Origin: Escherichia coli
Lineage (GTDB): Bacteria > Pseudomonadota > Gammaproteobacteria > Enterobacterales > Enterobacteriaceae
Assembly (NCBI RefSeq): GCF_013122565.1
Contig: NZ_CP053258.1
Strand: one strand, 5' to 3'
Length of the DNA: 64,000 nt
Shown: positions 11,790-18,605 of the stretch, one piece after another
Layout: each line of letters opens with the position of its first letter
Position numbering within the stretch: position 1 is the stretch's first letter
Translations under genes and position numbers: made by a program
Notes under the pieces: model-generated
What the model was told of the DNA's origin: nothing
Database searches by the model: none
The model's input: only the letters and a program-made list of their open reading frames with translations

Positions 11790-12037
11790 TTTAAACAAAC
11801 AATCAACCGCCATCAGCATTTGCACATTTTCAGAGTTTTATATAAAAGCAATTAGCTGATTTATATAGCTTATTTGATATGGATCGCAGAATTTTCTCTG
11901 CTATTTCGCATAAAGACTATCGGCAATGTCTCACAAAGCGTATGGCTTTTACTTACAACGCTCACGCCGAAAAATCCGCCTTTTATTATGGTTCAGGTAT
12001 AATCGCCACAAAGCTTTGACTGACGGAGACGACCGCT

Positions 12038-12670
12038 TTGACTAATTTGAATTATCAACAGACGCATTTTGTGATGAGTGCGCCAGATATTCGCCACCTA
12101 CCTTCCGATACCGGAATTGAAGTGGCTTTTGCAGGCCGTTCCAACGCAGGTAAATCCAGCGCGCTGAACACGCTGACTAACCAGAAAAGCCTGGCTCGTA
12201 CCTCAAAAACCCCTGGACGCACCCAGCTTATCAACCTGTTTGAAGTGGCTGACGGCAAGCGTCTGGTTGACTTGCCTGGGTACGGTTATGCGGAAGTCCC
12301 GGAAGAGATGAAGCGCAAATGGCAGCGCGCGCTCGGCGAATACCTCGAAAAACGTCAGAGCCTGCAAGGTCTGGTGGTGCTAATGGATATTCGCCATCCG
12401 CTGAAAGATTTGGATCAGCAGATGATTGAGTGGGCGGTAGACAGCAATATCGCCGTTCTGGTGCTGCTGACCAAAGCGGACAAACTGGCAAGCGGCGCAC
12501 GTAAAGCGCAATTGAATATGGTGCGTGAAGCGGTGCTGGCGTTTAACGGTGATGTGCAGGTTGAAACGTTTTCTTCGCTGAAGAAACAAGGCGTGGACAA
12601 GCTGCGGCAGAAACTGGATACCTGGTTTAGCGAGATGCAGCCTGTAGAAGAAACGCAGGACGGCGAATAA
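12038..12670 (+). CDS. engB: Ribosome biogenesis GTPase EngB/YihA
   Basis: 210-aa ORF with [10 protein letters not shown]-loop; TTG start codon at 12038. Confidence 0.9.
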
Positions 12671-12689
12671 TTTTCTTGCCTTAAAGCTT

Positions 12690-12772
12690 GTGCCGGATGT
12701 GGCGTATCCGGCCCGTAAATTCAATAGATTACAATTCTACCGTTGGCCTGATAAACATGGCGCATCAGGCAT
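12690..12772. repeat. REP elements
   Basis: gccggatgtggcgtatccggc ... ggcctgataaacatggcgcatcaggc. Confidence 0.7.
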
Positions 12773-12795
12773 TACGGACTTTTTCTTTCGCCCAA

Positions 12796-12904
12796 TAAAA
12801 AACGCCCCAGTCATTACTGACTGGGGCGGCTAAAATATTCAGCCAAATCCGATTACGTGAAGTAAAAGGTCTGAAAGATAGAACATCTTACCTCTGTACC
12901 CTAC
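12796..12904 (-). ncRNA. spf: Spot 42 small RNA
   Basis: Reverse complement reads GTAGGGTACAGAGGTAAGATGTTCTATCTTTCAGACC...GCCGCCCCAGTCAGTAATGACTGGGGCGTTTTTTATT, matching Spot 42 and its terminator; located between polA and engB. Confidence 0.9.
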
Positions 12905-13051
12905 GCGACTAACTTTACTCTTTTTTGTTCAGTTCAGAAAGCACTTTTTGTAATTTTTTTTCAGTTGTTGCATAGGAATTTCTAATAGCCATCACAAAAC
13001 GTGACAGCTTATGTTGCTTACTTACGAAAAAAGGGCATGTTCAGGCGAATC

Positions 13052-15838
13052 TTAGTGCGCCTGATCCCAGTTTTCGCCACTCCCCACTTCCACCAGCAAC
13101 GGCACATCCAGACGGGTACAGTTTTCCATCAGTTGATGAATCTGCTTCGCGACGGCATCGACATCATCTTTATGAACTTCAAATACCAGTTCATCGTGTA
13201 CCTGCATGATCATACGCACACGCGGTTGCTCAGCCTGTAACCACGCATCAACGGCAATCATCGCCCGTTTGATAATGTCGGCGGCGGTTCCCTGCATTGG
13301 CGCGTTAATAGCTGCACGTTCAGCCGCTGCACGACGAGCACCATTGCTGGATTTGATATCCGGCAGATACAGACGGCGTCCGTCCAGCGTTTCAACGTAG
13401 CCCTGCTCTTTCGCCTGAGCACGGGTGCGTTCCATATACTCCAGCACGCCAGGGTAGCGTTCGAAGTAAAGGTCCATGTACTTCTGCGCTTCTTTACGTG
13501 GAATGTTCAATTGCCGCGCCAGACCGAAAGCACTCATGCCATAAATCAGACCAAAGTTGATCGCTTTCGCGCTACGGCGTTGCTCGCTGGTGACGGTTTC
13601 CAGTGGCAAACCAAACACTTCTGCCGCCGTTGCCCGGTGGATATCTTTTCCTTCCGCGAATGCGGTCAGCAAGCCTTTGTCACGCGAGAGATGCGCCATA
13701 ATGCGCAGTTCAATCTGCGAGTAGTCCGCTGAGACAATCACATAATCCTCTGGCGCAATAAACGCCTGGCGGATACGACGACCTTCTTCGTTACGCACCG
13801 GAATGTTTTGCAGGTTAGGATCGGTTGACGATAAACGTCCCGTTGCAGTTACTGCCTGGTGATAAGAGGTATGCACACGCCCGGTTTTCGGGTTGATCAT
13901 CAGCGGCAGCTTGTCGGTGTAAGTCGACTTCAGCTTCGCCAGACCACGATACTCCAGAATCACTTTTGGCAACGGATAGTCCAGCGCCAGTTCTTCCAGT
14001 ACCTCTTCCGACGTTGACGGCGCGCCACCCGGCGTTTTCTTCAGCGGTTTAATGCCCTGTTTTTCAAACAGAATGGTTTGTAACTGCTTGGTGGAAGAAA
14101 GGTTAAATTCTTCACCTGCAATTTCATGCGCTTTCTTTTCCAGCTCAGCAAGACGAAGGGTGAGCTCTTCAGAATGATTGTGCAGCACTTTCGGATCGAT
14201 CTTCACACCGTTACGTTCAATGCGTGAAAGCACCGGCACCAGCGGCATTTCGATATTCTCGAAGACGTTCAACGGCCCTTTGTGTTTTTGCAGATCCGGC
14301 CACATTTTCAGATGCAACTGCAAGGTGACATCCGCATCTTCGGCGGCGTAACGTCCGGCCTCTTCGAGGGCAATCTGGTTAAAGGTCAGTTGATTTTTGC
14401 CTTTACCCGCAATCTCTTCAAAAGTGATGGTTTTGTGCTTCAACCAACGTTCCGCGAGGCTGTCCATATCGTGACGCCCGGCAACGCTATTGAGAATGTA
14501 GGACTCCAGCATGGTATCAAACGCAATCCCACGCAGCTCAATGCCGTAATTCGCCAGAATACCGCGGTCGTATTTCAGGTTTTGCCCGACCTTCAGCGCC
14601 TTTTCATTTTCCAGCAGCGGTTTTAGCAACTCGAGTGCACGCTCGCGAGAGATTTGATCGGGCGCATCAAGATAATCATGAGCAACCGGAATATATGCCG
14701 CTACGCCTGGCTCGATAGCAAAAGAAAGCCCGACCAGGTTAGCAGAGATGTTATCGAGGCTGTCGGTTTCGGTATCAAATGCAAATACCGGCGCTTTTTC
14801 CAGCTTCGCAATCCACGCTTTCAGTGTTTCTTCATCAAGGATGGTGACGTAGTTGTCATAAGAAATCACCGTTGCCGTCACTTCTGGCGCTTCGTCTGCA
14901 ACACTGGTTTCCTGCGGTCTGGCTGCGGGTTTCGCCCCTTTAGCCTGTAACCATTTGCCCGCTTCGACATCAGCAGTCCAGCGTTTGAACTCATACTTTT
15001 TGAACAGCCCCAACAACTCTTCCGCCGCCGGTTGCTGCACTTCCAGTTGTTCACAGGTCAGCTCCAGTTCAACGTCGGTTTTAATCGTCGCCAGCTGGTA
15101 TGAGAGATAAGCAACTTCTTTGTTTTGCTCGAGCTTCGCTGCCATTGTTTTCGCGCCACGGAAGCTCAACCCAGCAATTTTTTCTGGCTCGGCATACAGC
15201 GTATCCAGTCCGCCAAGACCTTGCAGCAATGCCTGCGCGGTTTTTTCACCGACGCCCGGTACGCCAGGGATGTTATCAGAGGAGTCACCCATCAGCGCCA
15301 GGAAGTCGATGATCAGTTCAGGCGGCACGCCGTACTTATTCACCACCTCTTCCGGTCCGAGGATGGTATTCGTCATGGTATTGATAAGCGTAATATTTGG
15401 CGTCACCAGCTGCGCCATATCTTTATCGCCAGTGCTGATCAGCACCGGACGCCCAGCTTTTTCGGCTTCGCGCGCCAGAGTACCGATAACGTCGTCCGCT
15501 TCTACGCCAGAAACCGCCAGCAGCGGCAGTCCCATCGCTTTAACCATCGCGTGCAGAGGTTCGATTTGTGCTCGCAGATCGTCCGGCATTGGCGGGCGAT
15601 GTGATTTGTAATGTTCAAACAGTTCATCACGAAAGGTTTTTCCCTTGGCGTCAAAGACCACCGCTGCATGCGTCGGTTTATATTGCATGATCAGACTGCG
15701 CAGCATGTTGAGGACACCATACATCGCACCGGTAGGCTCGCCTGCGCTGTTAGTCAGCGGGGGAAACGCGTGATATGCGCGATAAAGATAAGATGAACCA
15801 TCTACAAGGATAAGTGGATTTTGGGGGATCTGAACCAT
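13052..15838 (-). CDS. polA: DNA polymerase I
   Basis: 928-aa [28 protein letters not shown]...; 5'-3' exo, 3'-5' exo and polymerase domains. Confidence 0.97.
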
Positions 15839-15960
15839 AATGTCCGTGCCTGTTTATCAGTTTATGGGTAAAGGATGCCACAGACAGGATGAAAACATGA
15901 GTTTTTCGCCGCTTTTCGTGAAAATCTTTTGTAGATCTTCTGGATCGCTCGCAAATCGTC

Positions 15961-15969
15961 ATGTGGATA
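15961..15969 (-). promoter_or_regulatory. DnaA box (TTATCCACA) in polA upstream region
   Basis: tgtggataa on + strand is a perfect reverse-complement DnaA box; a second near-consensus box (tgtggatag) lies near 16101. Confidence 0.5.
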
Positions 15970-16201
15970 ACTTTGTGCATAAATTATTTACATCGCTTTT
16001 AATTTATTATCATGCTTTTTACAGCATGATGTTTGTCTTTGTTTTTCATGTAGTTAAAAATAAAGCCATCCCTAATAATTGAGATAATGGGATTTTTTCT
16101 AATGTGGATAGATATGAATTATTTTTCTCCTTAAGGATCATCCGTTATTTGGGGCGTTTTCTGCTAAAATCTGCGCCTTGCGCTTCTTTAGCGCACTGTC
16201 T

Positions 16202-17134
16202 ATGGCTAACCTTTTGAATAAATTCATTATGACGAGAATACTCGCTGCGATAACCCTTTTGCTGAGTATCGTATTGACCATTTTGGTCACTATTTTTTGC
16301 TCCGTCCCGATCATCATTGCCGGGATTGTAAAACTATTGCTACCTGTGCCAGTCATTTGGCGAAAGGTTTCGCGTTTTTGTGATTTTATGATGTATTGCT
16401 GGTGCGAAGGTCTGGCGGTATTACTGCATCTGAACCCACACCTGCAATGGGAAGTTCACGGGCTGGAAGGGTTAAGTAAGAAGAACTGGTATCTGCTTAT
16501 TTGTAACCACCGTAGTTGGGCAGATATTGTCGTACTGTGCGTGCTGTTTCGTAAGCACATTCCGATGAATAAATATTTCCTCAAGCAGCAACTGGCCTGG
16601 GTGCCTTTTCTTGGCCTGGCGTGCTGGGCGCTGGATATGCCGTTTATGAAGCGTTATTCCCGCGCTTATTTATTACGTCATCCGGAGCGACGTGGTAAAG
16701 ATGTCGAAACCACTCGGCGTTCTTGTGAAAAGTTTCGCCTGCATCCCACCACAATTGTCAATTTCGTTGAAGGCTCCCGTTTCACGCAAGAAAAACATCT
16801 ACAAACCCACTCCACTTTTCAAAACTTGTTGCCACCAAAGGCGGCAGGCATTGCGATGGCGCTAAATGTACTGGGTAAACAATTCGATAAACTTCTTAAT
16901 GTTACGCTGTGTTATCCGGACAATAACCGTCAGCCGTTCTTCGATATGTTAAGCGGTAAACTGACGCGAATTGTCGTACATGTGGATTTGCAGCCTATTT
17001 CCGATGAGTTACATGGCGACTACATCAATGACAAAAGCTTTAAGCGCCATTTTCAGCAATGGCTGAACTCACTGTGGCAGGAAAAAGACCGGCTTCTGAC
17101 GTCGTTGATGTCATCACAGCGGCAGGACAAGTAA
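16202..17134 (+). CDS. yihG: Acyltransferase (1-acyl-sn-glycerol-3-phosphate acyltransferase family) YihG
   Basis: NHRSWADI acyltransferase motif, N-terminal TM segment; start set at MANLLNKF. Confidence 0.85.
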
Positions 17135-17140
17135 ATTTTG

Positions 17141-17172
17141 CTCGCCTCTGAATGAGCAGAGGCGAGTGAGTA
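17141..17172. terminator. Bidirectional terminator between convergent yihG and yihF
   Basis: ctcgcctctg-aatgag-cagaggcgag hairpin flanked by T/A runs. Confidence 0.65.
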
Positions 17173-17174
17173 TT

Positions 17175-18605
17175 TTAATGAACAAAACGTCCGGCACGAG
17201 ACATAAATTCTTCTTCGCTCATCTCCTGTCCGTTAAAAACAACTTTACCCGGTGTATAACGCAGTTGCAGCGAGGCGGTATTGTTGTCAATCGTGATTAA
17301 CTGAAACATCTGACCTAAGGTCATCATCCCGCTGATTTGTTTATCAGCCTGCTTTTGCGCTTTTTCCGCATCCATTCCTTCAGATAAATTAAGCTGTTTT
17401 GCGATTTCTGTGACGACATTAAGCGGTAACTTCACATCAAAATTGAGCGATTTGATATCTTTGTTTGTGGATGATGAAGATTTGGCTGGGTCGGCAATAC
17501 TGATATCCAGATTGGCATTTAGTTCGCCGAGTGCGTTCTTCCATCTTACCGGTTGTTTAATGGTCGGCTCACTTTGTTGTAATAACGGTAAATACTCTTT
17601 GAACAATGCAGCATTCACTTCTTGCAGAGCAACTTCATCGTTTGCTAACTCAGGGTGTGCAGCAAGCTGCTTCTGCATCGCAATGTTATAATGGATGATA
17701 AATTGGCGCACTGCTGAGGGATCAATAGATTCAGCAATCAATGACCACTCACCACTACCGAGTTGCTGATTCCCTTTTGTTAACTTATCAAGTTCGTAGG
17801 TCAGATTGACATTGATATAATCTTTGTCTTTAACGCGATCCAGCCTGGTTTTTGCAACGAAAGCATCGATTTGGGCAACGTCTTCCCCCTGATTGATAAT
17901 ATTAACCTGATTAAATTTCGACTCGCTTTCACCAACCGGAAATTTCTTTTCTTCTAATCGTGTCAGAGAATCAATGGTAAAACTTTTTGCCGTTACTTTG
18001 TTCATTGGTGATAATTGCAGAACAATATCTTCGACTTTGCCTTCAATATCCAGGTTAGACAATGAACTACCATCACCATTAAAAGTAAACTGGCCTTCAC
18101 CAAAGGAAAACTTTCCATACTCTGCAGGGGCAACATCTAATGTCGTGGAGAAGGAGCCACCAAACGCGAATCGCAATGTTGCTTCCACGGGCGATTTATT
18201 TTTCGCGGCAATAAATAGCGGTTGTGTCAGTTCATTATTCACTAAGCTCACTTTTGCCGCTGCCAGTGCTGGGATGACATTACCATGCATTAACATTGTG
18301 ATGGGCAACGGACCGTGCTCAACATCCACATCAAATGCAACTTTCTGGCCTGGCTTGATATTGAGATCGGGTGCACCGTTATCAAATGAAATTTGCATTT
18401 GAAAATGGGAATTAAAAAAGCCTTTGTCAAAGTTTTTATAACTTAACGTCATATCGTAGGCATGTTCACCTTTCTTTTTAGCATCGTTAAAATCTTTAAT
18501 AAATTTTTCGACACCAGGCTGAATTTGCGTACCTGTGTACCATGTGCCACCACCCCAGATTACGGCTAACGCAACAATAACACCTGTAGCTGACTTACGT
18601 ATCAT
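17175..18605 (-). CDS. yihF: DUF945-family exported protein YihF
   Basis: ORF with signal-anchor-like N-terminus; start set at MIRKSATGVIVALAV. Confidence 0.8.
   Translation of the reverse strand: MIRKSATGVIVALAVIWGGGTWYTGTQIQPGVEKFIKDFNDAKKKGEHAYDMTLSYKNFDKGFFNSHFQMQISFDNGAPDLNIKPGQKVAFDVDVEHGPLPITMLMHGNVIPALAAAKVSLVNNELTQPLFIAAKNKSPVEATLRFAFGGSFSTTLDVAPAEYGKFSFGEGQFTFNGDGSSLSNLDIEGKVEDIVLQLSPMNKVTAKSFTIDSLTRLEEKKFPVGESESKFNQVNIINQGEDVAQIDAFVAKTRLDRVKDKDYINVNLTYELDKLTKGNQQLGSGEWSLIAESIDPSAVRQFIIHYNIAMQKQLAAHPELANDEVALQEVNAALFKEYLPLLQQSEPTIKQPVRWKNALGELNANLDISIADPAKSSSSTNKDIKSLNFDVKLPLNVVTEIAKQLNLSEGMDAEKAQKQADKQISGMMTLGQMFQLITIDNNTASLQLRYTPGKVVFNGQEMSEEEFMSRAGRFVH

Follow-up and report, generated by a model that had tools for sequence, protein, structure and literature searches.

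We identified a set of conserved elements in the divergent spacer between polA and yihG of Escherichia coli that probably constitutes a DnaA-binding regulatory region upstream of polA, serving both DnaA binding and the control of polA. The elements are a DnaA double box (box 1 and box 2), a putative core resembling the IHF consensus, and a distal single DnaA box, and their coordinates are listed in Table 1 together with those of the surrounding features (the window denotes the whole stretch of 64,000 nucleotides that was analysed). DnaA binding at the polA double box and the stimulation of polA by DnaA are already known, so that binding upstream of polA adds nothing new to polA biology. What is new is the distal box, the predicted IHF-like core, and the fixed spacing of 141-142 bp between the distal box and box 1, none of which is mentioned in the sources consulted on the polA site.

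Table 1. Features of the polA–yihG locus, with coordinates counted from the first base of the window.
Feature	Coordinates	Strand	Description
Spot 42 sRNA gene (spf)	12796-12914	minus	downstream of polA; Rfam 122.8 bits
polA	13052-15838	minus	coding sequence, 928 aa (open reading frames and K-12 annotation)
polA–yihG divergent intergenic region	15839-16201		363 bp, 35.8% GC
polA-proximal conserved block	15839-15901	minus	about 63 bp, about 80% majority base; TGGCAT at 15875-15880 invariant
Best conserved -10-like position toward polA	15859-15866		CATAAA/TAAACT; about 25 bp before the ATG; candidate
Two GATC sites	15934-15937, 15943-15946		9 bp apart; the first inside AGATCT (15933-15938)
Box 1, perfect DnaA box TTATCCACA	15962-15970	minus	downstream half of the double box; 132-124 bp before the polA ATG
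Box 2, DnaA box TTATGCACA	15974-15982	minus	match to TTWTNCACA; upstream half of the double box
IHF-consensus-like core TTTCATGTAGTTA	16044-16056	plus	putative; 2 mismatches to WATCAANNNNTTR; lies between the distal and double boxes
Distal single DnaA box CTATCCACA	16103-16111	minus	141 bp upstream of box 1
Putative yihG extended -10 TGCTAAAAT	16162-16170	plus	predicted start about 16177; conserved as TGnTAAAAT
yihG	16202-17134	plus	coding sequence, 310 aa; 1-acylglycerol-3-phosphate O-acyltransferase

DnaA boxes in the spacer and DnaA binding upstream of polA

The sequence-only reading had described a very AT-rich, divergent polA/yihG region of approximately 360 bp, and this description holds: GC content is 35.8% across the spacer and 26.5% in its core, as compared to 51.5% across the 64-kb window as a whole, in which just 1.5% of all 363-bp segments match the spacer in AT-richness. 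The same reading had named a perfect DnaA box and a near-consensus second box. Both are present, the latter as CTATCCACA, though the coordinates given for them were off by one base and by two bases, respectively, and box 2, which lies 3 bp from the perfect box, had been overlooked. When compared to the 9-mer TTATNCACA, box 1 has no mismatch and the distal box has one (at position 1), while box 2 fits the TTWTNCACA pattern. Box 1 and box 2 conform to the definition of a double box (TTATGCACA-aag-TTATCCACA, co-oriented, with a 3-bp spacer at 15971-15973), a pairing that is kept in 80/80 of the taxa described below. All three boxes share one orientation and point toward polA. We also observed an inverted DnaA-box-like 9-mer (TTATTTACA, 15984-15992, plus strand) that lies 1 bp from box 2 and is not conserved beyond Escherichia.

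Occupancy of the double box has been documented by a ChIP-seq study of DnaA in E. coli K-12 (Stringer, Fitzgerald and Wade 2024, PMC11317965), in which the polA peak, at 4046831, reaches 123 times the coverage of the control. The polA 'double DnaA box' in Table 1 of that study, tTTATGCACAaagTTATCCACAt, is letter-identical to the window, and a table footnote names NC_000913.2 as the reference for the peak coordinates (PMC11317965). Read in NC_000913.3 coordinates, the peak centre maps to position 15973 of the window, within the 3-bp spacer of the double box. Under what we take to be the offset of NC_000913.2, the same coordinate would fall approximately 1.8 kb inside polA. The K-12 site upstream of polA is the same locus with an identical double box, and nothing differs there; across the whole spacer, the window departs from K-12 at five positions, none of which lies within a DnaA box. 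Previous work thus shows very strong in vivo occupancy of the polA double box by DnaA, which probably binds there as a cooperative dimer. Coverage reported for other loci was 174-218 at oriC, 213 at datA, 78-213 at DARS2, and 124 at purH, with lower values at mioC (25), DARS1 (16), nrdA (14), and dnaA (5) (PMC11317965). At the purH double box, DnaA binding drops sharply when either half is mutated or when the two halves are moved apart by 1 bp; both halves and a spacing of 2-3 bp are required (PMC11317965). More generally, 13 of the 32 perfect boxes of the genome were bound in vivo, and single boxes were argued to be poorly bound (PMC11317965).

Regarding the consequences for polA, the reviews consulted all credit Quinones et al. 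(1997) with the finding that DnaA stimulates polA expression, notably in stationary phase. Together with the ChIP-seq peak on the double box, this bears out the DnaA-dependent control of polA that the sequence-only reading had cited as reported. A 2025 study of datA and DARS mutants found most proteins of the DnaA regulon to be unchanged, which suggests that DnaA may have only a small effect on polA transcription, and proposed that promoter boxes titrate DnaA as well. Neither polA nor yihG is mentioned in the supplementary data of this 2025 titration study.

Conservation and spacing of the elements across Enterobacteriaceae

A scan for the YihG protein in one genome per species recovered 80 loci, of which 79 have the divergent polA–yihG pair and represent Escherichia, Citrobacter, Salmonella, Enterobacter, Klebsiella, Raoultella, Kluyvera, Buttiauxella, Cedecea, Kosakonia, Franconibacter, Atlantibacter, Pluralibacter, and other genera. 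The divergent order was kept in 79/79 informative Enterobacteriaceae loci. The 80 distinct spacers were then aligned; they average 0.62 identity to the window, and conservation away from the invariant sites is about 50-60%. Box 1 shows no variation at any of its 9 positions in 80/80 sequences and forms the longest invariant run of the spacer. The second-longest run belongs to the distal box, in which 8/9 positions (TATCCACA) are invariant in 80/80 sequences and whose flanks are only 30-60% conserved; its position 1 is A in 56/80 taxa (ATATCCACA) and C in the other 24. Box 2 follows the pattern xTATnCACA, with CACA invariant, positions 2-4 conserved at 93-97%, and positions 1 and 5 free (position 5 being N in the consensus). 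Judging from this alignment, the distal box appears to be a real and strongly constrained element. The sequence-only reading had proposed that an absence of DnaA occupancy, or boxes not conserved among close relatives, would speak against its interpretation of the region. The outcome is the opposite on both counts, given the published 123-fold peak in K-12 and boxes that are invariant across genera.

The spacing between the elements is also constrained. The distal box and box 1 are separated by 141 bp in 34 taxa and by 142 bp in 42, the only values in the 76 taxa measured, and the box positions in all 80 sequences agree with a spacing of 141-142 bp. The intervals between the boxes show a majority-base conservation of approximately 50% and a gap fraction of 0-1%, as opposed to a gap fraction of 26% on the yihG side. 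Within the longer interval, 80/80 taxa carry an IHF-like 13-mer that departs from WATCAANNNNTTR by no more than two bases (8 perfect, 43 with one mismatch). It lies on the strand opposite to the boxes, and its offset from the distal box is constant at 55-56 bp. This core resembles the datA IHF site TATCAATAGGTTA. Approximately 7% of shuffled intervals reach the same level of match at a fixed position, and the match should be read with the caveat that a weak, AT-rich consensus such as that of IHF is being compared with a region that is itself AT-rich.

Because distances vary only toward yihG, the distal box and the IHF-like core seem to keep their register to the double box rather than to the yihG promoter, and the contrast of fixed with variable spacing argues that the distal box belongs to a DnaA module on the polA side and not to a dedicated yihG operator. 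We hypothesize that the distal box, the IHF-like core, and the double box form one nucleoprotein module, in which bending of the intervening DNA would place DnaA on the distal box next to the DnaA pair on the double box. The stabilised occupancy of DnaA might then set the activity of the polA promoter, while yihG, having a putative extended -10 promoter of its own outside the module, would be affected at most indirectly. This module is supported by the conservation of the distal box and of the IHF-like core, which matches that of the double box, and by spacers that are fixed in length and free in sequence. Several points stand against it. Only one ChIP-seq peak was called at this locus, with its centre on the double box, and the same study argues that single boxes are poorly bound (PMC11317965). 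In addition, if the -10-like element approximately 25 bp before the ATG is the polA promoter, the double box would lie approximately 120 bp upstream, which is far for a simple activator. The module is not mutually exclusive with either of the functions considered below, i.e. a datA-like role in DnaA homeostasis and the direct control of yihG.

Within E. coli, a 1.1-kb query across the region matched 5,425/5,426 complete genomes (best match 99.3%), all of which are annotated with polA and yihG. A homologue search beyond Enterobacteriaceae returned close relatives only among the matches listed, and a metagenome scan for the two-box pattern placed the polA–yihG locus in 1/80 screened loci among the matches listed. 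Enterobacterial polA–yihG loci were also observed on contigs labelled Marinobacter sp. B9-2 (with a yihG 99% identical to that of E. coli) and Chryseobacterium sp. 18061, and both assemblies are probably contaminated or mislabelled.

Comparison with datA and other DnaA-binding loci

The activity of DnaA in E. coli is controlled by a few non-coding loci (datA, DARS1, and DARS2) in which DnaA boxes occur along with IHF sites. Similar parts are present at the polA site, where DnaA binding in vivo is of about the same strength as at the datA/DARS loci and where the parts are subject to a strict length constraint across Enterobacteriaceae. It is conceivable, though we would not expect it, that the module exists mainly for DnaA homeostasis, acting as an origin-proximal site of high affinity that titrates DnaA, or through a datA/DARS-like DnaA–IHF complex that would alter the nucleotide-bound state of DnaA, with any effect on polA being secondary. 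ChIP coverage at polA (123) falls within the range of datA, DARS2, and oriC, and the fixed length and free sequence of the spacers between the boxes would suit such a complex. The window is also enriched for DnaA-box-like 9-mers, with 26 observed at up to one mismatch to TTATCCACA (positions 1-64000) as compared to 12.1 expected (sd 3.4), a number reached in 0/100 shuffles. This enrichment fits the published enrichment of DnaA boxes near the origin (PMC12371093) and the proposal that promoter boxes titrate DnaA.

The closest likeness is with datA, a locus for DnaA-ATP hydrolysis and titration whose essential core comprises box 7 and box 2 as a double box, an IHF site, and the single box 3, i.e. 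the same parts that we find, or predict, upstream of polA. In K-12 datA, TTGTAAACA-gag-TTATCCACA is followed by TATCAATAGGTTA on the opposite strand and then by TTATTCACA, which lies 162 bp from box 2. Both loci accordingly carry a double box, an IHF site (at polA, a sequence match) with its core on the opposite strand, and a single co-oriented box beyond it, and both are bound very strongly by DnaA in vivo. Conversely, the parts follow the opposite order when read along the orientation of the boxes (double box–IHF–single box at datA; single box–IHF–double box here), the spacing is 162 bp at datA as opposed to 141-142 bp, and the polA–yihG element sits in a divergent promoter region. Because of the reversed order and the different spacing, the element is datA-like in composition and would probably not qualify as a datA-type element in the strict sense.

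DARS2 (in the mutH promoter) and oriC share with the polA site their high-affinity DnaA boxes, a promoter within or adjacent to the element, and high ChIP coverage, and both are known to combine high-affinity boxes with IHF-dependent bending. They differ in the pattern of box orientation, and nucleotide exchange or DNA unwinding is known there and not here. A DARS core contains oppositely oriented DnaA boxes and promotes the release of ADP. The three conserved boxes upstream of polA are instead co-oriented, the sole inverted 9-mer being the non-conserved one beside box 2, which counts against a DARS-like function. It also counts against a mainly homeostatic role that no genetic screen cited names the polA–yihG locus as a regulator of the DnaA cycle.

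Among promoter-associated sites, nrdA and purH resemble polA in that a double box with a 3-bp spacer precedes a gene that functions in DNA or nucleotide metabolism and is bound in ChIP-seq, although coverage at nrdA is 14 as compared to 123 at polA. The purH–rrsE spacer of K-12 additionally contains a one-mismatch box, TGATTCACA, in the same orientation and 135 bp from the perfect box, which is reminiscent of the 141-142 bp found at polA. We rejected a polA-type architecture for purH, given that no IHF-like core was found along with this third box.

Drawing on these parallels, we tentatively suggest that a conserved DnaA–IHF–DnaA complex could represent a further origin-proximal control element of the datA/DARS kind, coupling the occupancy of DnaA to polA and to the lipid-dependent reactivation of DnaA, although we consider this doubtful. 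If such a complex is real, it would be a candidate for an additional player in the titration or cycling of the initiator, and its adjacency to yihG would provide a testable link between DnaA and the lipid composition of the membrane.

The yihG side and other features of the spacer

Toward yihG, the TGCTAAAAT element is the most consistent sigma-70-like position (mean score 5.3; above 4 in 56/80 taxa), and a CAGA next to TGnTAAAAT is likewise conserved. The distance from the distal box to TGnTAAAAT falls into three classes (59-62, 89-91, or 103-106 bp) owing to insertions of 30 and 44 bp in several genera, and thus varies by 30-44 bp. These distances bear on an unlikely reading, to which we give somewhat less weight than to DnaA homeostasis, in which the distal box is an operator of yihG through which DnaA switches the acyltransferase gene with replication status, in parallel to polA. 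In E. coli the distal box is centred approximately 70 bp upstream of the predicted yihG start, and its invariance in 80 taxa would be expected of an operator. An operator would keep a fixed register with its promoter. The spacing of the distal box is instead fixed to the polA-side box and ranges over 59-106 bp to the yihG -10-like element, and the distal box points toward polA, as the double box does. In addition, three distant YihG homologues (46-49% identity, from other Gammaproteobacteria in a representative search) whose genes are not divergent from polA have no strong upstream DnaA box, a small sample of three loci. We also rejected the distal box as a -10 element of yihG, since promoter scores are low and inconsistent and the bases that never vary match the DnaA consensus.

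The biology of YihG lends this operator some plausibility. YihG is a second lysophosphatidic acid acyltransferase, which introduces cis-vaccenoyl groups into phospholipids (PMC7277886). The same paper relays that overproduction of YihG suppresses hyperinitiation and its associated growth defect, presumably through DnaA-ATP levels, and the reactivation of DnaA is promoted by unsaturated acidic membrane phospholipids (PMC7277886). The suppression of hyperinitiation and the lipid-dependent reactivation of DnaA make a feedback loop between DnaA and YihG biologically plausible. A functional link between YihG and the status of DnaA therefore exists in the literature, which does not show that DnaA controls yihG, and our literature search found no report tying yihG expression to DnaA. 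A different linkage was observed in the distant gammaproteobacterium GCA_010993985.1, where polA is followed on the same strand by a cupin gene and two tandem genes for YihG-family acyltransferases, which indicates that some polA–acyltransferase linkage exists outside Enterobacteriaceae in another arrangement.

The reading of the boxes as chance matches in an AT-rich spacer is supported by the lone perfect box of the 64-kb window (box 1), which is not significant in itself because 31/100 shuffles contained at least one, and it is nonetheless virtually impossible, being already refuted by conservation and ChIP-seq: three co-oriented boxes with at most one mismatch within 363 bp have a probability of approximately 5e-5 (shuffle rate) to 5e-4 (the rate of the window itself), their invariance in 80/80 spacers of mean identity 0.62 rules out a chance origin, and their occupancy in vivo is published.

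Returning to the polA-side module, its promoter can be outlined in terms of candidates. A built-in promoter scan of the spacer reported no sigma-70 site, and a search of published start-site data found no experimental start site for polA or yihG. Besides the -10-like position in Table 1, a weaker polA promoter candidate, consisting of TTGCGA and a poor -10, is present immediately downstream of box 1. At position 15861 the window has A where K-12 has T (CATAAA here, as opposed to a CATAAT-like element), T being the majority base across genera, and the effect of this A depends on which hexamer is the real -10.

The polA-proximal block also contains a conserved motif of approximately 21 bp (consensus CTgTGGCATCCTTTA.CcATAA, at about 15860-15883) that includes the invariant TGGCAT. 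A conserved RNA structure was rejected for this block (-3.9 kcal/mol, with a covariation term of approximately 0). Since neither a sigma-70 -35/-10 pair nor a conserved RNA fold fits, the TGGCAT motif may be the binding site of a factor. An Rfam scan of positions 12000-18000 likewise returned nothing except Spot 42.

Between this block and the double box, at least two GATC sites occur within 50 bp downstream of box 1 in 69/80 taxa, and 51 taxa have the 9-bp spacing at an offset of 24-26. The AGATCT that encloses the first site was rejected as a conserved ATP-DnaA box, the GATC core alone being conserved and the flanking bases not. Based on sequence pattern, the GATC pair may point to control by Dam/SeqA or to ATP-DnaA sites. 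Lastly, a terminator-like inverted repeat with a 9-bp stem, TATCATGCTTTTTACAGCATGATG, followed by a T-rich run, was observed in the middle of the spacer (16008-16031, plus strand), and it appears to be specific to Escherichia because the stretch containing it is only 30-50% conserved across genera.
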